Shown here one piece after another: positions 14,724 to 60,793 of a stretch of 64,000 nt of DNA (positions are counted from its first letter, which is position 1; the number at the start of each line of letters is the position of its first letter). Source of the stretch: an uncultured Acidobacteriota bacterium. Lineage in GTDB: Bacteria > Acidobacteriota > Thermoanaerobaculia > Gp7-AA8. The notes under the pieces were generated by a model, which had not been told where the DNA came from, made no database searches, and saw only the letters and a list, made by a program, of their open reading frames with translations. The translations under genes were made by a program, and so were the position numbers. The stretch lies in NCBI GenBank assembly GCA_963822445.1, contig CAWGHO010000002.1:1280001-1344000 (forward strand), read 5' to 3'.

Positions 14724-17490
14724 ATGCCCTCTCGCACAATCTCCATCCGCGGGGCGCGGACGCACAATCTCAAGAACGTATCGGTCGACATTCCCCAGCG
14801 CCAACTGACGGTCATCACCGGTCCGTCCGGCTCGGGAAAGTCGTCGCTGGCCTTCAATACTCTCTATGCCGAGGGGCAGCGGCGGTTCGTCGAGTCGATG
14901 TCGACGTACGTGCGGCAGTTCCTGGAGCGGATCGACCGCCCCGACGTCGATGAGATCGACGGAATCCTCCCCGCCATCGCCATCGAGCAGAAGAACTCGG
15001 TCAAGAACGCGCGCTCCACGGTTGCGACCGCCACCGAGCTTGCCGATCACATCCGCCTCTTCATGACCTACTGCGGCGAGACCTGGTGCCCCGACTGCCG
15101 GGTGAACGTGCGCAAGGAGAGTCCCGAGTCGATCGCCAGCACGATCCTGGAAACGCTCGCCGGCAAGCGCGTGGTCGTGCTCGCCCCGGTATTCTTCGAT
15201 CCCGCCCATCGCGAAGTGGTCGTCGAGCAGCTCGTGAAAGCGGGCTTTTTCCGCGCCTGGCTGAACAACGCCGTCGTCGATCTCAATGAGCTCGATACCT
15301 CGAAGTTCACCTCGCTGGAGATCGTGATCAATCGCCTCCGCGTCGAGGAAGAACGACGGACGCAGATCACCGAGGCGCTGGAGCAGGCGTTCGAGGTCTC
15401 GAAAGGGACTGTCAATGTCCTCGAGGAATCAGAGGAAGGCTGGCTCAGTCACCGATTCACGTCGCACTTCGCCTGCAACAAATGCGGCCTCGAGTTCATC
15501 GAGCCGACCCCGCACATGTTCTCGTTCAACTCGCCGCTCGGCGCGTGCACGAACTGCCAGGGCTACGGCCGGATCATCGGCATCGACATGGAGAAAGTGA
15601 TTCCCGAACCGCGACCTGCGGCTCGACGAGCTGCCCATCGCACCGTGGAACTCGGCCGGTTACGAAGACTGCTACGAAGATCTGGAGAAGGCCGCGGCGA
15701 AGTACAAGCTGCGCCTCGACGTCCCCATCAAAGACCTGTCCGCGGCCGAATGGGAGCTGCTCTACAACGGCCGCAGCAAGTGGTACGGCATCAAGGGCTT
15801 CTTCGAGTGGCTGGAAACGAAAAAGTACAAGATCCACGTGCGGGTGAAGCTCGCCAAGTACCGCAGCTACGAGCCCTGCCCGCAATGCCACGGCTCGCGG
15901 CTCAAGAGCGTGGTGAACAACGTGAAGTTCCGCGAGCTCACCGTCGGCGAGCTCTTCGCGATGAACGTGAAGACCGCGCGGCGCTTCTGGGAGTTCCTTC
16001 CGATGACGAAGCACGAGGAAGGGCTGGCCGGACATCTGCGGCGGGAGATCGTCAATCGCCTGGTTTATCTCGATGAAGTCGGTCTCTCATACCTCACGCT
16101 CGATCGCCAGACCCGCACCCTCTCCGGCGGCGAGTCCCAGCGCATCAATCTCGCGGCGGCACTCGGCAGCTCGTTGACGGAGACGATGTACGTGATCGAC
16201 GAGCCGACGGTCGGACTGCACGCGCGCGACAGCGAGCGCCTGCTGGCCGTGTTGCGGCGATTGAAGAACGCCGGGAACACGGTGATCGTGGTGGAGCACG
16301 ATCCGACGATCATTGCCGGGGCGGATTATTCGGTTGAACTTGGACCGGGAGCAGGCGAGTACGGTGGTGAGGTGATGTATTCGGGGCCGGTGCGCGTGTC
16401 GGAAGTGCCCGTCCCGCCCAGGTCCCTCGACTCCGCTCGGGATGACATGGGCAAGCTCAAGATCGTCAACGCGCGCGAGCACAACCTCAAGAACGTCACC
16501 GTCGACATCCCCCTCGGCAAGCTCGTCGCGGTGACCGGTGTCTCCGGCTCCGGCAAGTCGACGCTCATCCGCAACTGCCTGTACAACCGCTACCAGCGCG
16601 ATGTGCGCGGCACGGCCGGACTGGAAACGGGCAAGGTCGACGCGATTCTCGGCGTCGACCGGATTTACGACATGGAGCTCGTCGACCAGTCGCCGATCGG
16701 ACGCTCGTCGCGTTCGAATCCCGCGACGTACATCAAGGCCTGGGACGAGATCCGCAAACTGCTCGCCGAAACGACGACCGCGAAACTGAACGGCGTCACG
16801 CCGGGCATGTTCTCGTTCAACACGGAAGGCGGGCGTTGCGAGGTCTGCCAGGGCGCCGGGACGGTGACCATCGACATGCAGTTCCTCGCGGACGTGGAAG
16901 TGGTCTGCGACAAATGCGACGGCCGCCGCTTCGGCGAGCAGGTGATGAAGGTGACGTTCAAAGGGAAGAACGTGAACGACATCCTCAACCTCACTGTCGA
17001 TGAAGCAGCGAAGTTCTTCGTCGCGAAACGCGCGCTGCTCAAGCGGCTCGACGCCCTCCGCTCCGTAGGCCTCGGCTATCTCCGCCTCGGCCAATCCACC
17101 GATTCGCTCTCCGGCGGCGAGGCCCAGCGCCTGAAGCTCGCGTCGTTCCTCTCCGAAGCCGCGAACATCGACAAGCCGCGCCTCTTCCTCTTCGACGAGC
17201 CGACCACCGGCCTTCATCACACCGACGTGCAGGTGCTGATCAAGACCTTCCGCGATCTGCTCGAGCGCGGGAACTCCGTCCTCGTGATCGAGCACAACAC
17301 GCAGCTCATCGAGCAATCGGACTGGGTCATCGACCTCGGCCCCGAGGGTGGGGACGGGGGCGGGGAGGTGGTGGCGGTTGGAACGCCGGAGGAGATCGCG
17401 GGGAATGAGCGGTCGATTACGGGTAGGTATTTGTTTAGGAGTGCGGTGGCGGAAGCCACCGCTTTGGCAGGCAGCGCCGCCGCTCTGTAG
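14724..17490 (+). CDS. uvrA: Excinuclease ABC subunit A (UvrA family); +1 insertion near 15604
   Basis: Two ABC halves ([34 protein letters not shown]) and Zn fingers; ORFs 14724.. and ..17490 join after removing one C at 15603-15605. Confidence 0.92.
16413..16447 (+). repeat. REP family B half-element embedded in-frame in uvrA
   Basis: 16421-16447 GGTCCCTCGACTCCGCTCGGGATGACA is identical to 23799-23825; it encodes part of [10 protein letters not shown]. Confidence 0.8.
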
Positions 17491-17528
17491 CGATACCAGA
17501 GCGGCGGCTTTGCCGCCGCACTCCTAAA
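17434..17528. repeat. REP-like element, family C (GGAGTGCGG...CCGCACTCC), overlapping the uvrA 3' end
   Basis: TTTAGGAGTGCGG / CCGCACTCCTAAA 13 bp terminal inverted repeat with internal hairpins; same family as 60732-60793. Confidence 0.78.
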
Positions 17529-31820: not shown

Positions 31821-33515
31821 ATGCCGCGGATGCGATTCCTGCTCCTCGTGCTCGCGCTCGTGCTCGTTCGTCCCGCCGCATCGCAGACATGGAATCAGTG
31901 GGCCGGCGGCCCGGCGCACAACGGCACGCTCGACGTCACCGGCCAGCGGCTGACGCGGGAGCTGGCGAACATCATCGTCGACCCGTTCGTGCCGCAGGAG
32001 CGCGGCGAAGCGAACGGCAACCTCCTCGTTCACTACCAGACCCCGCTCTCCGACGGCAACGGCGTGTTCATGGAAGTGAAGAGCGGCACGTACACCGGCT
32101 TCCGCACATGGGAGACGCAGACCTGGAACGTGCGCAAGTTCGAATGGGAGAACGGGCAGCTGGTCACGCGGTGGACCGCCGCCAGCGACTGGAAACCGGC
32201 GCCATCCGGAGGACCGCGCTTCGAGCCGGTCTTTCATTCAGCGCTGCGCGGCGATGCGTTGTTCATGGCCGGCGCGGGAGGAACGGTCCTCGAAGTCGAT
32301 CGCGATACCGGCACGATTCGTCAGCGTCACGGACAGTTCGATCCGGTGCTCGACGCGCGGACGTTCGTGATCAGCCCGATCACGATCGATGCGGACGGCA
32401 ACATCTATTACAACGTGGTGCGGATGTCGGAGGCGGCCAACCCCTGGACGTCCGATCACGCCGGCGCGTGGCTGGTGAAGATCGCCCGCGATGGAACGGC
32501 GTCGCGAGCGGCGTACAGCGCGCTGGTGACGAATGCCCCCCCGCCGACGGATGCATGCACCGGCGAGTTTGCGACGGGCCAGCAGCCGTGGCCGCCGTCG
32601 CCGACGGCCACACCACCCGCGCCGCTGTGCGGCTCGCAACGCGCCGGAATGAACGTCGCGCCGGCGGTCGGGCCGGACGGCACGGTCTACACCGTCTCGC
32701 GCACTCATCTGAACAGCCGCTGGGGATGGCTGGTGGCGGTGAACCCCGATCTCACGACGAAGTGGTCGACGTCGCTCCGCAATCGATTCAACGACGGCTG
32801 CAACGTTCTGCTCCCGCCGAACGGATCGCCCGGAGGATGCCGCGAGGGGGCGACGACCGGCGTCGATCCGTCCGACAACCAGCCCGGCTCCGGTGCGGTG
32901 AACGACAGCTCGACGTCGTCGCCCGTCGTCGCGCCGGACGGCACGATCTACTACGGCGCGTACAACCGCTACAACCACTCCCAGGGCCACATGATGCGGT
33001 TCTCCGCGTCGGGGGAGTACCTCACCGCGTACAAGTTCGGATGGGACGTGACGCCGGCGATCTGGAAGCACGACGGAACGTTCTCGCTCATCACGAAAGA
33101 GAACCGCTACGAAGGCACCGGCCCGCGCGTCGCCGGCGATGAGGAGGGCTACTTCATCACACAGCTCTCGCCGGAGCTGAACGTGGAGTGGCAGTTCAAG
33201 AGCACGAACACGCTCAGCTGCGAGCGACAGCCGGACGGCACGATGACCTGCGTCGACAACCGGCCGGGCGGCTTCGAGTGGTGCGTCAACTCACTGGCCG
33301 TCGACCGGAACGGCGTGGTGTTCGTCAACAGCGAGGATGGTCATCTCTACGCCATCAACCAGGGCGGCACGCTTCGCGAGCGGATCTTCCTGCAGCTCGC
33401 GCTGGGCGCGGCCTACACGCCGCTCTCGATGGGAGTCGACGGACGGATCTACACGCAGAACGCGGGACGGCTGTTCGTAGTGGGATCGCAGCCGAAGCGG
33501 CGATCGGTGCGGTAG
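31821..33515 (+). CDS. Secreted beta-propeller-like (PQQ/BamB-like) hypothetical protein
   Basis: Signal peptide, WNQWAGGPAHNG, repeated P(A/V)VxPDGT(V/I)Y blades and Cys pairs; ends in KRRSVR. Confidence 0.78.
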   Translation: MPRMRFLLLVLALVLVRPAASQTWNQWAGGPAHNGTLDVTGQRLTRELANIIVDPFVPQERGEANGNLLVHYQTPLSDGNGVFMEVKSGTYTGFRTWETQTWNVRKFEWENGQLVTRWTAASDWKPAPSGGPRFEPVFHSALRGDALFMAGAGGTVLEVDRDTGTIRQRHGQFDPVLDARTFVISPITIDADGNIYYNVVRMSEAANPWTSDHAGAWLVKIARDGTASRAAYSALVTNAPPPTDACTGEFATGQQPWPPSPTATPPAPLCGSQRAGMNVAPAVGPDGTVYTVSRTHLNSRWGWLVAVNPDLTTKWSTSLRNRFNDGCNVLLPPNGSPGGCREGATTGVDPSDNQPGSGAVNDSSTSSPVVAPDGTIYYGAYNRYNHSQGHMMRFSASGEYLTAYKFGWDVTPAIWKHDGTFSLITKENRYEGTGPRVAGDEEGYFITQLSPELNVEWQFKSTNTLSCERQPDGTMTCVDNRPGGFEWCVNSLAVDRNGVVFVNSEDGHLYAINQGGTLRERIFLQLALGAAYTPLSMGVDGRIYTQNAGRLFVVGSQPKRRSVR

Positions 33516-33944
33516 CGGATCAGCGCTCACCCGCGCCAACCCGCGCGAACAACCGAGTCGAGCTACGGCTTCGGTTCGTCAGTTCGGAGCAGATGCCGAT
33601 AGCGGTTGACCACTACCGCCGTCGCGATCTGGCCGAATATGAATCCGCCGATTCCGGCACCGACGACAACTCCGACCAGGCGCGCATCTTGAGCTTTACC
33701 AAACATGGTACCGAGCCATGTGCAAACGCCGCACGCCAGAAGCCCAAGCCAGGTTTGCCAGTGTCTGAATGCGCGGGAGCTGATTCGGCGCCAAACCCTG
33801 CCGCGTTGGCGCGCGGGTAGGCTGGATAACTCAGGGATGCTCGCGAGAGTCCAGTAGATTCGCATCCGCAGTTCGAAGACTCCAGAATAGCAAACTACGA
33901 CACACGCGGCGCGGGTTGGCGTCGGCTGCAGCGTTGAGTTAGAC
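33510..33944 (-). mobile_element. Solitary integron attC-like site whose 362 bp loop encloses an ORF
   Basis: R'' GTCTAAC, 5 nt spacer, L'' GCTGCAGC, 13 bp perfect inner stem, L' GGTGAGC, spacer GCTGATCC, degenerate R' GCTACCG; two unpaired bases at attC-typical positions. Confidence 0.65.
33563..33865 (-). CDS. Small 2-TM hypothetical protein (100 aa) nested in the attC-like loop
   Basis: MRIYWTLASIPELSSLP... with two hydrophobic helices; more A/T-ending codons than neighbours; TG-C-TATTCT at 33884-33892. Confidence 0.68.
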   Translation of the reverse strand: MRIYWTLASIPELSSLPARQRGRVWRRISSRAFRHWQTWLGLLACGVCTWLGTMFGKAQDARLVGVVVGAGIGGFIFGQIATAVVVNRYRHLLRTDEPKP

Positions 33945-33959
33945 GGTGGGGGCGTCTGA

Positions 33960-36395
33960 CTACTCGTTCGCAGCCGCAACCGGCGTGATCGGCGCCCTGT
34001 AATCGCACTCGGCGTCGTTGCAGTACTCGATGTGCCCCTCGCGCTTGGTCTCCTTCTCCAGGAGATACGGCGCGTGGCACTTCGGGCATTCTCGGGCAAC
34101 CGGGCGATTGTTCAGCGTGAACTCGCACTTCGGGTAGCGGTTGCAGGAGAAGAACACGCCGCGGCGCGAGATGCGCTCGACCAGCTCACCCTCGCCGCAG
34201 GTCGGGCACTTCACACCGGTCGGCTTCGGCGGCGTGGACTTGCGGCCGATCTTGCGGATGGTCTTGCAGTCCGGATAGCCGGCGCACGAATAGAACGGGC
34301 CGTAGCGGCCGCTCTTGAGGACCATTTCCTTCCCACAGTTTTCGCAGGGAGGCTGCGGCTCGCTGGGCAGGTTCGCCGCGGCCTTCATCAGCTTGGGGTC
34401 CTTCGTGTTCTTGCAGTCGGGGTAGCCGGTGCAGGCGAAGAACTGCCCGAACCGCGAGCGCTTGAGCGCCATCGGCTTCCCGCATTTGTCGCAGATGATC
34501 TGCTCGTCGTCCGACGTGGCCGCGGCGGCATCGCCCTTGGCCATTTCCTTCGTGGTCTTGCACTCGGGGTAGTTCGAGCAGGCCATGAACTCGCCGAAGC
34601 GACCGAACTTGATGATCATCGGCGAGCCGCAGTTCTCGCACTTTTCGTCGGTCTCGAGTCCGGAGCCTTTGACCTGGGTCATCTCCGTCGCCGCCCGCTC
34701 GAGGTCGACGTTGAACTTGACCGAGAAATCCTTCATCAGGTCGGTCCAGATCATCTTCCCGTCTTCGACCTCGTCGAGGTCCTGCTCGAGCTTCGCCGTG
34801 TAGCCCTCGTCGATGATGTCGCCGAAGGACTGCTTGAGCAGCGTGACCACGAGCGTGCCGAGGTGGGTTGGGTGGAACTTGCCCTCGTGCTTGTAGGTGT
34901 AGTCGCGGGCCTGGATGGTCGTGAGAATCGCGCCGTACGTGGACGGCCGGCCGATGCCGTTCTCTTCCAGCGCCTTCACCAGCGTGGCTTCGGTGTAGCG
35001 CGGCGGCGGCTGGGTGAAGTTCTGCTTCGTATCGAGATCGACGAGGGAAAGCACGTCGCCTTCGTTCAGCGGCGGCAGCGCCTTCTCATTCTTCTTCTCT
35101 TCATCCTCGTCGTAGTCTTCCGAAGGCTCGTCCTGGAAGACGGCCAGGAAGCCGGCGAACTTCTGCACCTCGCCCGAGGCGCGGAGGGTGAGGTTGCCCA
35201 CGGTGATGTCCGCGTCGGTGACGTCGAACAGCGCCGGCTTCATCTGCGACCCGACGAAGCGGTCCCAGATCATCTTGTAGAGGCCGTACTCCTCGCGGGT
35301 CAGGAAGTCCTTGATCTTCTCGGGGTCGAGCTCCATCGAGGTCGGGCGGATGGCCTCATGGGCTTCCTGCGCTTGTGCAGCTTTTTTGACCTTATAAAAG
35401 TTCGGTTTATCGGGAAGAATATCGTCACCATATTTCGCGGCGATATACGATCTCACTTCTCCGAGAGCGTCGTCGCTGATGCGCACCGAGTCGGTACGCA
35501 TGTAGGTGATGAGACCCGCAAACCCGAACGTGCCGAGCTCTTTGCCTTCGTACAGCTTCTGCGCGACCTGCATGGTCCGCTTCACCGGCCACTTGAACCG
35601 GTTGTAGGCCGTGCGCTGCAGGGTCGAGGTGATGAACGGCGGCGCGGCGGACTGTTTCCGCTCCTTCCGCGCGACTTCGGTGACGACGTACTTGCCGCTC
35701 TTGAGCGCCGCTTCGATCTTCCGGGCCGTCTCCTCGTTCGGAACTTCGGCCTTCTTGCCGTCGACCTTCGAGAGCTTGGCGATGAACTGCGGGGGGACGC
35801 CGGCGGCGAGCTTCGCGGCGAACGTCCAGTACTCGACCGGGGTGAACGCTTTGATGTCTTCCTCGCGGTCGACGATCATCTTCATCGCCACCGACTGCAC
35901 GCGTCCGGCGGAGAGACCGCGGCGCACCTTGTCCCAGAGCAGGGGAGAGAGCTTGTAACCGACGAGGCGGTCGAGAACGCGCCGGGCCTGCTGCGCGTTG
36001 ACCTTGTTCATGTCGATCTCGCCGGGATGCTCGATCGCTTTCTTGACGGCTTTCTTGGTGATCTCGTGGAAGAGGACCCGGCGGACCTTCGAGGCGTCGC
36101 CGCCGAGGAGGTTCATCACGTGCCAGCCGATGGCCTCTCCCTCGCGATCAGGGTCGGAAGCGATGTAGATGGTCGTGGCTTTTTTCGCGGCTGCTTTGAG
36201 CTCGCTGACGACCTTCTCTTTGCCTTCCAGGACCTCGTACTTCGGGAGGAAGGTGACCTCGTCGACGCCGAGCTCGCTCTTGGGGAGATCGCGGACGTGG
36301 CCGACCGACGCTTTGACCAGGTAATCCTTGCCGATGAACTTGTTGATTGTCTTCGCTTTCGCGGGAGACTCGACGATGACTAGGTTCTTGGCCAT
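33960..36395 (-). CDS. topA: DNA topoisomerase I with C-terminal Zn ribbons
   Basis: LVIVESPAKAKTI, DPDREGE, SAGRVQS, ITYMRTDS and EAHEAIRPT motifs; several C4 zinc ribbons. Confidence 0.97.
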   Translation of the reverse strand: MAKNLVIVESPAKAKTINKFIGKDYLVKASVGHVRDLPKSELGVDEVTFLPKYEVLEGKEKVVSELKAAAKKATTIYIASDPDREGEAIGWHVMNLLGGDASKVRRVLFHEITKKAVKKAIEHPGEIDMNKVNAQQARRVLDRLVGYKLSPLLWDKVRRGLSAGRVQSVAMKMIVDREEDIKAFTPVEYWTFAAKLAAGVPPQFIAKLSKVDGKKAEVPNEETARKIEAALKSGKYVVTEVARKERKQSAAPPFITSTLQRTAYNRFKWPVKRTMQVAQKLYEGKELGTFGFAGLITYMRTDSVRISDDALGEVRSYIAAKYGDDILPDKPNFYKVKKAAQAQEAHEAIRPTSMELDPEKIKDFLTREEYGLYKMIWDRFVGSQMKPALFDVTDADITVGNLTLRASGEVQKFAGFLAVFQDEPSEDYDEDEEKKNEKALPPLNEGDVLSLVDLDTKQNFTQPPPRYTEATLVKALEENGIGRPSTYGAILTTIQARDYTYKHEGKFHPTHLGTLVVTLLKQSFGDIIDEGYTAKLEQDLDEVEDGKMIWTDLMKDFSVKFNVDLERAATEMTQVKGSGLETDEKCENCGSPMIIKFGRFGEFMACSNYPECKTTKEMAKGDAAAATSDDEQIICDKCGKPMALKRSRFGQFFACTGYPDCKNTKDPKLMKAAANLPSEPQPPCENCGKEMVLKSGRYGPFYSCAGYPDCKTIRKIGRKSTPPKPTGVKCPTCGEGELVERISRRGVFFSCNRYPKCEFTLNNRPVARECPKCHAPYLLEKETKREGHIEYCNDAECDYRAPITPVAAANE

Positions 36396-36497
36396 TGCGG
36401 AACGCCCCAAACTGACCGCTCGACCACCGTTATTCCGGTGCTCTCGGGAGGCGGGACGATATCAGACCGTTTCGAAAGGGCGCAAAATGGCTACCGC

Positions 36498-44747: not shown

Positions 44748-44834
44748 GAATGCAGAATGCAGAATGCAGAATGCAGAAAGGGGCCTGCACTTGTCTTTCA
44801 GGTTTCTGCATTCTGCATTCTGCTTTCTGCATTC
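44748..44834. repeat. Inverted pair of heptamer arrays, (GCAGAAT)n / (ATTCTGC)n
   Basis: About 4 units per arm around a ~25 bp loop, between atpF and atpH; same unit at 57827-57918. Confidence 0.88.
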
Positions 44835-50481: not shown

Positions 50482-51080
50482 TAAAGATGTTCCACGTGGA
50501 ACGTTAAGACTTTGAGGTAGTTGGATTCGCCACGAGGGAGCCGGATGGCTTCCGTGGCCGTGAATCCCGCGATCTCAGGCGCGTCCGGAGAACCCTGAAA
50601 CAGCGCGACTCGCGCGCCATTCTCCAGATGCCCTTTCAGCGTCGGAACCCACTCTTCCGGCTCCCCAACTGCCCTCGATACGACCAGGGAAAAGCGGAGA
50701 GTCTCGGGAAGCCGGGCCAAAAGGCGCGCCAATCTATCACCGTAAACCAGCGAGTTCAATCCGCACTCCCGCACCACATGCTTCAAAAACGCCCACTTTT
50801 TCTGGTCCGCCTCGCACAGATGAAAGCGGGCCTCCGGCGAAACGATGGCCATGGGGATGGCCGGCAGACCGCCACCGGAGCCGAAGTCGAGGACCTCCCC
50901 TTTCGGCTGGAGGATCTCCGCGGCCGCGACGGCCTCGGCGATGTGGTCGTCGAGGTTCTCGCGCGCCTCGGGACCGATAAGGTTTACCTTTGCCGTCCAC
51001 TTCAGGAGCTCGGACTTATAAGTGGCGAGTGATGAGGGATGAGGGATGAGTGGCCCGCCGCCCGGTATCTTACTCATCAC
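50481..51080 (-). CDS. rsmG: 16S rRNA m7G527 methyltransferase (start uncertain)
   Basis: LLKW...NL, LDFGSGGGLPAI, KKWAFL and VSRA motifs; lies between mnmG and parA. Confidence 0.88.
   Translation of the reverse strand: MMSKIPGGGPLIPHPSSLATYKSELLKWTAKVNLIGPEARENLDDHIAEAVAAAEILQPKGEVLDFGSGGGLPAIPMAIVSPEARFHLCEADQKKWAFLKHVVRECGLNSLVYGDRLARLLARLPETLRFSLVVSRAVGEPEEWVPTLKGHLENGARVALFQGSPDAPEIAGFTATEAIRLPRGESNYLKVLTFHVEHL
50488..50503. promoter_or_regulatory. parS site inside the rsmG 3' end
   Basis: TGTTCCACGTGGAACG, 15/16 match to the palindromic parS. Confidence 0.85.
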
Positions 51081-51096
51081 TCATCCCTCATCACTC
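51027..51096. repeat. Inverted pair of heptamer arrays, (GATGAG[G/T])n / ([C/A]CTCATC)n
   Basis: Spans the mnmG stop codon and the rsmG 5' region. Confidence 0.8.
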
Positions 51097-57826: not shown

Positions 57827-57918
57827 GCAGAATGCAGAATGCAGAATGCAAAATGCAGAAAAGAGGCAGGCTTGTGGCGCCGTCCTTTTCTGCATTCTGC
57901 ATTCAGCATTCTGCATTT
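57827..57918. repeat. Inverted pair of heptamer arrays, (GCAGAAT)n / (ATTCTGC)n
   Basis: Second copy of the 44748-44834 family, in the rpmH-dnaA intergenic region. Confidence 0.88.
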
Positions 57919-60731: not shown

Positions 60732-60793
60732 TTTGGAGTGCGGCAGCTCTGCTGCCGCTTTCAGAAGCGGCGGCAGAGCCGCCGCACTCCAAA
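60732..60793. repeat. REP-like element, family C
   Basis: TTTGGAGTGCGG...CCGCACTCCAAA fills the whole dnaN-recF gap. Confidence 0.82.

Follow-up and report, generated by a model that had tools for sequence, protein, structure and literature searches.

An integron cassette is defined as a gene followed by a short hairpin recombination site (attC), and detection tools assume that this site is short and limit its size; one program limit is 200 nt. In the sites behind the IntegronFinder attC model, the apical loop of the hairpin, or variable terminal structure (VTS), ranges from 20 to 100 nt (PMC4889954). The Vibrio cholerae repeats have a large VTS, and the VTSs known from that account, which run from 3 nt to a branched structure of 65 nt, are non-coding; the loop sequence is unconstrained, and recombination persists when it is exchanged (PMC2727003). 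Cassettes may also stand alone: SALINs, single attC sites lacking an integron integrase, result from attC × attG insertion (bioRxiv 10.1101/2022.09.11.507474). Fused and truncated cassettes arise by partial deletion of attC (PMC8876359), and attC is itself a target for group IIC-attC introns and IS1111-attC elements (PMC3001079, PMC8876359). Here, we describe a solitary cassette in the genome of an uncultured Acidobacteriota bacterium from soil (GCA_963822445.1, contig CAWGHO010000002.1, positions 1,280,001–1,344,000), in which a complete gene lies inside the attC loop. The whole 64,000-nt stretch is referred to in the following as the window, and positions are counted from its first letter. 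In a search of the literature, supplementary tables aside, no account of a gene housed in the loop of an attC came up.

The cassette block covers 444 bp on the minus strand (33516–33959), between topA and a convergent gene. Its two arms, at 33909–33944 and 33510–33546, enclose an open reading frame (ORF) that lies between L'' and L', and not between the 5' boundary and R'', as in the canonical layout. We consider it probable that a single reading covers the locus as a whole: the block would be a solitary, integrase-inserted cassette with a real attC site and the gene in its loop, the layout would be a derived one-off, and the element would now be immobile. The initial annotation had described an attC-like hairpin on the minus strand with R''-L''...L'-R' boxes, a spacer, two arms and a long loop, and each of these features was found where it had been placed (Table 1).

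The arms share a perfect 13-bp inverted repeat (33921–33909 and 33546–33534), with 362 nt between the arms. Taken alone, this repeat was no better than chance. The window contains three perfect 13-mer inverted repeats with loops of 100–500 nt, and 60 windows simulated with a first-order Markov model contained 1.6 on average, 78% of them having at least one. The identification of the attC site rests on its homology to a family of attC sites, and not on the repeat itself. In a DNA search of 34 genomes of the same genus, positions 33883–33946 matched a dispersed repeat, up to 97% identical. The copies often occurred several to a contig at cassette-like spacing, some with a counterpart of 33513–33547 a few bases away. 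When 26 copies of the 5' arm in the fetched loci were examined, that of the window included, 17 had the 3' arm 29–33 nt from the 5' arm and three had a diverged 3' arm at the normal distance. Four consisted of the 5' half only, followed by unrelated sequence after the loop, and one lacked R'' and was probably a chance match. The window copy, with arms 364 nt apart in this count, was the only long-spaced one; the 362 nt between its perfect arms compare with 29–33 nt in the 17 relatives' copies and with about 3–100 nt for a short VTS. The 5' half of the window was identical at 60 of 62 positions to an array site in a relative (L047, in genome G023).

An alignment of 20 short-loop copies from relatives (A2, 108 positions) showed that the RYYYAAC and GTTRRRY ends covary between sites. 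The family stem has 17 pairs, with compensatory changes at four of them, and two unpaired bases are common to the family. A covariance model built from short-loop family copies (R1) matched the window at 33847–33947 (minus strand, 41.3 bits, E = 2e-8) and at 33509–33614 (minus strand, 22.4 bits, E = 0.0012), and these two halves were its sole matches below E 0.01 in the window. We then joined the arms by removing 33550–33882 and scored them with a profile made from the 20 relatives only, the window being left out. The joined arms scored as a full-length member of the family, with 83.9 bits over profile positions 3–102; members scored 51.9–104.4 (median 87.6), and the best of 200 shuffles reached 0.9. 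The 3' part alone gave 17.4 bits with nhmmer. The joined arms folded at −33.7 kcal/mol, versus −23.8 ± 2.9 kcal/mol for shuffles. Judged by these sequence comparisons, the two arms are halves of a genuine integron attC site, as had been proposed from the letters alone.

Unpaired bases on the R''-L'' arm of attC sites lie 6–8 nt apart (PMC2727003), and the two unpaired bases on the 5' arm of the window are separated by 7 nt. On the bottom strand, the first of them would read C, versus the conserved G. The spacers of the two halves are complementary at 7 of 8 positions, and after the 3' copy of the inverted repeat the minus strand reads CG, GGTGAGC, GCTGATCC and GCTACCG. Of this last heptamer, the present R' box, only G 33516 can be cassette-derived, as CTACCG consists of the neighbour's stop codon and last codons. 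The box departs from GTTRRRY and pairs with R'' at only three of seven positions, and the TCAGAC at the left end of the block, together with G 33516, would pair with R'' at six of seven. Poor pairing that can be restored in this way is what would be expected after integration into a non-attC site. The GCT core of R' need not be a later mutation, since natural members of the family also carry it: it stands in 2 of the 20 sites of alignment A2 and at C3:17376–17484 on another contig of this genome.

Table 1. Features of the solitary cassette and the two genes beside it, with positions in the window.
Feature	Position	Strand	Basis or remark
topA (DNA topoisomerase I, 816 aa)	33960..36410	−	Pfam Topoisom_bac E 6.6e-120, Toprim, four Zn ribbons
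Cassette left end TCAGAC, putatively the distal half of the R' core left by integration	33954..33959	−	5/6 match to the reverse complement of its own R''
Linker, 9 nt, from cassette 5' end to R'' (usual place of the cassette gene)	33945..33953	−	
R'' box GTCTAAC, fits RYYYAAC	33938..33944	−	R'' and the next 13 nt (20 nt) identical in L047
Spacer TCAAC (5 nt) and L'' arm (33932–33909, 24 nt)	33909..33937	−	Unpaired G 33929 and A 33922
5' part of apical loop (VTS), 26 nt	33883..33908	−	Conserved in the family; holds TGCTATTCT, an extended −10-like motif
Segment of ~333 nt splitting the loop, edges ± ~2 nt	33550..33882	−	ORF, 17 nt upstream and ~13 nt downstream
ORF, 100 aa, small membrane protein	33563..33865	−	Family known as cassette cargo
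Loop 3' end and L' arm (33546–33525)	33525..33549	−	Covariance model and nhmmer matches
Spacer GCTGATCC (8 nt) and hybrid R' box GCTACCG (33516–33510)	33510..33524	−	
Convergent gene, 564 aa	31821..33515	+	ORF list; PQQ_2/beta-propeller weak, Pfam PQQ_2 E 0.02, below cut-off

The stop codon of topA (TAG, 33962–33960) adjoins the left end of the block, and that of the convergent gene (TAG, 33513–33515) falls within the R' box. The 3' end of topA is kept in all 35 genomes of the genus, and the convergent gene is syntenic with topA in the loci of 13 relatives. In these 13, between −4 and 628 nt of unrelated sequence lie between the two genes, for example REP-like (repetitive extragenic palindromic) hairpins or other ORFs. 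No attC was found between the two genes in any of 29 loci; the best match (21.1 bits) lay inside topA. A soil metagenome contig from a relative that is ~90–95% alike joins 33517 to 33961 with two letters between, and represents an empty site. The stretch missing from it ends on the right at 33517 and on the left at the cassette start, each within 1–2 nt. As to the question raised at the outset, whether relatives have an empty site, the block is absent from the 13 syntenic relatives and from this contig, and the ORF is not conserved there. In other metagenome contigs, only six letters separate 33544 from 33883, which corresponds to a short-loop form. Among the sequencing runs, none contained more than 0.10 of the sampled words of the window.

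A classically integrated cassette has the G of R' as its final base, and the block missing from the empty site ends on the right at just this G. Together with TCAGAC at the left end, this would be the signature of a single integrase insertion into a non-attC site. The cassette start also resembles the sequence that follows the R' G in L125 and L047, with eight of nine positions identical. We infer that the target was the meeting point of the two stop codons, with the junction known to 1–2 nt.

Two side observations concern the same junction. REP-like hairpins beginning TTT(A/G)GAGTGCGG occur in the window at 17434–17517 and 60732–60782 and in three relatives' loci (L025, L030 and L037); in several relatives, hairpins of this kind occupy the stretch from topA to the adjacent gene. 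In genome G001 (L016, G001:C103:230–240), topA and the convergent gene have overlapping stop codons, which fall within a GTCTAAC/GTTAGAC heptamer, a core-like sequence at the very position of the cassette in the window. Its GTCTAAC was considered as an R'' core and is read as coincidence, as the C-terminus of that topA differs.

Homologs conserve the N-terminus of the ORF in the loop, which backs its start codon. The ORF has atypical codon use, as had been remarked at the outset, with a GC content at third codon positions (GC3) of 0.66, versus 0.88 for topA and 0.87 for the convergent gene. The product had been called a protein with two transmembrane segments; one of them is clear by hydropathy (residues 63–86), but the second is weaker and does not reach 1.4 when 19 residues are averaged. 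Neither Pfam nor NCBIfam had a family scoring above cut-off, and a protein atlas gave a lead to DUF6170 at 0.89 that Pfam did not confirm. The ORF had no DNA match in 34 genomes of the same genus; two weak matches in the same-genus genomes searched fell inside long open frames, and the ORF was absent at the topA locus and elsewhere in the relatives searched. A segment at 33786–33824 is complementary to both arms; it was considered as a meaningful element and is read as chance, its codons being conserved and its length unchanged relative to homologs.

A word-indexed protein search found two relatives of the ORF, and two collection scans added homologs at 30–60% identity, from 62 metagenome loci and from 24 species genomes that span several phyla. 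With none above 60% identity, these scans yielded no near-identical donor cassette. In 11 loci, a GTTRRRY core lay 16–48 nt upstream of the homolog's start codon. The covariance model was run on 18 of the 86 homolog loci, picked for cassette features; in nine of these 18, the homolog was followed by an attC that begins ~8 nt before the end of the ORF, so that R'' contains the stop codon. L096, the best protein match, belongs to an array of five sites, and its attC agrees with that of the window in R'' and in the start of the arm. The homologs closest in the C-terminus are ordinary cassette cargo. Thus, homologs precede related attC sites, so that the gene family and the attC superfamily would travel together, in the normal layout. 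By its codon usage and relatives, the cargo is foreign and of cassette type. It had been asked whether homologs would be flanked by the same arms. None was: no homolog of the ORF was enclosed by attC arms, and the closest sit in normal cassettes instead.

Integrons are widespread in this genus. The integron integrase gene, intI, scored above the curated cut-off in 20 of 35 genomes, this one included; the counts take in two unpublished genomes (G002 and G041), and no conclusion depends on either. Arrays of 4 to 10 attC sites at cassette-like spacing were present in five fetched loci (L046, L047, L048, L050 and L052). In genome G013, the array (L050, G013:C59) begins ~1 kb downstream of an intact intI on the same contig, and four listed ORFs of L050 end right before an attC in the same direction. 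Since the ORFs of G013 mostly end before sites in this way, the minus strand of the window corresponds to the cassette (top) strand. In a classical integron, intI is divergent from the cassettes; in this genus it runs with them, both in L050 and in this genome's own integron. In G023, intI was seen only as fragments beside an attC array (C370:14565–15391, C284). It is possibly a pseudogene there, and contig ends could explain the fragments as well.

The genome itself has a single intI (C2:2118113–2119048, 456 bits), ~804 kb from the cassette, and none lies within the window, as first noted. It opens a complete integron (L010, G000:C2:2118113–2138199) with at least 12 cassettes in the same direction. 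The attC sites of this integron are long (~190–215 nt) and belong to a family other than that of the window; in eight of eight measured sites, the R' motif lay 185–197 nt from the 5' half, and none of the eight had a gene in the loop. A covariance model search found two more sites of the window's family on contig C3 (G000:C3:16792–17484, 75.4 and 37.2 bits). They enclose an ORF of 94 codons, and the cluster has no integrase; a search for the exact arms had missed both. One of them, C3:17376–17484, has the spacer GCTGATCC followed by GCT, as in the window. Short-loop relatives of the site and integrases are thus common in the genus and present in this genome.

Taken together, these results lead us to propose the following course of events. 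The gene-in-loop layout would be a one-off rearrangement of an ordinary cassette, as its closest homologs are ordinary cargo followed by related attC sites. The rearrangement would have occurred in a donor array, before integration, and an integron integrase would have moved the cassette in its present form, inserting the 444 bp where the two stop codons meet and leaving a solitary element of the SALIN kind. Among 33 gaps between successive attC sites in relatives' arrays, the smallest was ~210 nt and no attC-only cassette was present; the gap size favours the gene having been in the loop before integration. We hold a rearrangement in the donor array, with the integrase moving the cassette as it stands, to be plausible, if somewhat short of an even chance. 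That an attC with the cassette's sole gene in its loop was a working substrate, so that IntI excised and integrated a 444-nt circle with a 362-nt loop, is a more tentative proposition.

Several observations weigh against this reading. The gene-in-loop cassette is a single instance, and four soil or sediment runs had zero coverage of 33579–33857. The empty-site contig has a 3-nt spacer between the stop codons, and its left junction is fixed only to 1–2 nt. The attC cores are non-canonical, with GCT in R' and TC for TT at the left end, and the inferred target triplet departs from GWT, the consensus reported for IntI1 (bioRxiv 10.1101/2022.09.11.507474). One covarying stem position of the family has a G facing a G in the window, which could mean that each half derives from an attC site of its own. 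On the bottom strand, the fold of minimum energy lacks the long stem, as internal decoys at 33786–33824 compete with it. Long and short loops are reported to recombine similarly when the sites arrive single-stranded, and long loops to lower recombination by up to 4 logs under replicative conditions (PMC8946536). Finally, the loop junctions of the 333-nt segment, inspected by eye, show no G|TT core and no target duplication, and the only terminal inverted repeat of the segment is 5 nt long (GAGTC/GACTC). With this repeat and no duplication, the segment was rejected as a transposon. An attC-targeting insertion sequence (IS) or group II intron was rejected as well, the insert having no transposase, reverse transcriptase, terminal repeats or target duplication. 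Simple integrase reactions (excision, loop-site integration, loop–loop recombination) leave R boxes beside a gene; in the window, L boxes flank it.

The rival explanation that survives best has two steps at the present site. A gene-less cassette (15 nt plus a 111-nt attC) would have integrated first, and a 333-nt fragment with the ORF would then have been captured in its loop by illegitimate recombination, for instance when a broken hairpin tip was repaired or when a polymerase switched templates twice. The loop junctions are in keeping with this, as they carry no integrase signature. Cleavage of hairpins by SbcCD is established (PMC8946536). Orphan halves of the window's attC family, 5' or 3', were seen in relatives (L117, L118, L120, L048:4489 and L049), running into unrelated sequence in or beside the loop. 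They suggest that the loop of this family is a recurrent breakpoint, and the broken halves suggest a fragile or tolerant spot; 4 of 25 relatives' copies have the 5' half only, and a lone 3' half exists. Against this, two rare events would be needed at a single locus, the intermediate is present in no relative, and an attC-only cassette was seen in none of the 33 gaps. A random fragment is also unlikely to be a complete gene whose relatives are cassette cargo with the same attC superfamily. We consider this two-step course unlikely.

Still less likely is the inference drawn in the initial annotation, that such attC sites are a functioning class of gene carriers, self-contained and dispersed on chromosomes. 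The cassette-like ends suggest that an integrase handled a site with a 362-nt loop, and the VTS is dispensable and variable (PMC2727003). This idea did not hold up in the wider survey: the layout occurred in 1 of 26 family copies and in none of the eight measured sites of the genome's own integron, and no homolog of the ORF is so arranged, the closest being in normal cassettes. In addition, the R box of the window copy is broken, and a lone attC has no second site for excision; as crossover takes place in R', a single site is unable to release its own loop.

Lower again, and distinctly improbable, is a remnant of an attC–ORF–attC arrangement, in which two deletions would have removed the 3' arm of the upstream site and the 5' arm of the downstream site. 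The G–G mismatch would fit two parents, and the GTGAGC and GCT of the window's 3' half recur in sites that have CAC in the 5' arm (L052:3500–3608, C3:17376–17484). Truncated attC sites and fused cassettes are also known (PMC8876359). Against this, the two deletions must have stopped at one point of the loop, to within ~3 nt, the spacer of one half pairs with that of the other at 7 of 8 positions, and an upstream cassette of only 15 nt would still be required. A nearest-neighbour comparison of the halves distinguished no parent, the 3' half being too short. Loop sequence duplicated on either side of the ORF was also sought. Extending the 3' nhmmer match into profile positions 46–69 gained only 4.3 bits. 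The covariance model aligned the 3' end of the ORF to a whole attC at 22.4 bits in total, and the same bases, aligned by eye to R'' plus spacer, fitted about as well. Such a duplication was indistinguishable from chance. A chance inverted repeat around an ordinary orphan gene, which the frequency of 13-mer repeats in simulated windows would allow, is effectively refuted by the score of the joined arms against the shuffle maximum, by the near-identity of one half to an array attC, and by the absence of the whole block in relatives.

Returning to the integrase-inserted cassette with its gene in the loop, the long-range stem is able to form: its calculated equilibrium probability was 0.46 for the bottom strand and ~1.0 both for the top strand and as RNA. 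The element is immobile now, because it has no partner site nearby and because its R box, which pairs at three of seven positions, was broken by integration into a non-attC target. The suggestion that it might be immobilised thus proved sound.

An extended −10 element had been pointed out in the loop. The motif (TG-n-TATTCT) is present at 33892–33884 and ends 18 nt upstream of the start codon, but a sigma-70 scan found no full promoter. As TGnTAnnnT occurs in the loop of 14 of the 20 family members in A2, often within a GTAG...CTAC mini-hairpin, the motif is part of the attC and no feature of the gene. It could serve as a promoter that the attC supplies to the following cassette, or be purely structural. 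No terminator-like site was found between topA and the ORF, which makes read-through likely; two terminator-like matches lie inside the ORF. Expression of the gene probably relies on transcription running on from topA, on the −10-like motif of the loop, or on both. Elsewhere in the window, hairpins with tandem heptamers (44748–44823, 57827–57906 and 51025–51087) carry GAATGCA at two sites and GATGAGG at the third, and look like intergenic repeat elements.

SALINs and a variable VTS are already known; what is unusual here is a gene within the attC loop. If such a gene can be moved, the attC loop would be a second cargo bay of cassettes, invisible to current detection tools. The locus offers a clean natural case, with near-identical short-loop sisters, a known empty site and ends that resemble integrase products. 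It raises the questions of whether the integrase is able to handle a gene-sized loop, and whether such cassettes have been overlooked in genomes and metagenomes. If both answers are yes, inventories of cassettes and models of cassette origin will need revision; if not, the locus is a neat fossil of a rearranged cassette.

Compared with the literature cited here, the locus resembles each of the known systems in some respects and departs from each in others. Its 362 nt between the arms is far beyond the 20–100 nt of the sites behind the IntegronFinder model (PMC4889954). With the Vibrio cholerae repeats, it shares the R''-L''...L'-R' layout and unpaired bases 6–8 nt apart, but its 362-nt VTS holds a complete gene (PMC2727003). 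As in fused cassettes, a rearranged attC fixes genes into new units; fusion, however, removes the attC between genes, whereas the window keeps both halves of the site around one gene (PMC8876359). Like the group IIC-attC introns and IS1111-attC elements, foreign DNA interrupts an attC, but the sole product of the insert is a 100-aa membrane protein, which elsewhere is carried as cassette cargo. The closest likeness in setting is to SALINs: the 64-kb window has a single attC, with no intI or other attC nearby. One cassette with one attC sits far from intI at a chromosomal non-att site, downstream of an expressed gene, and its R' core is rebuilt from the target. It differs from SALINs in that the target triplet is not GWT and, above all, in that the gene lies inside the attC loop, not upstream of R''.

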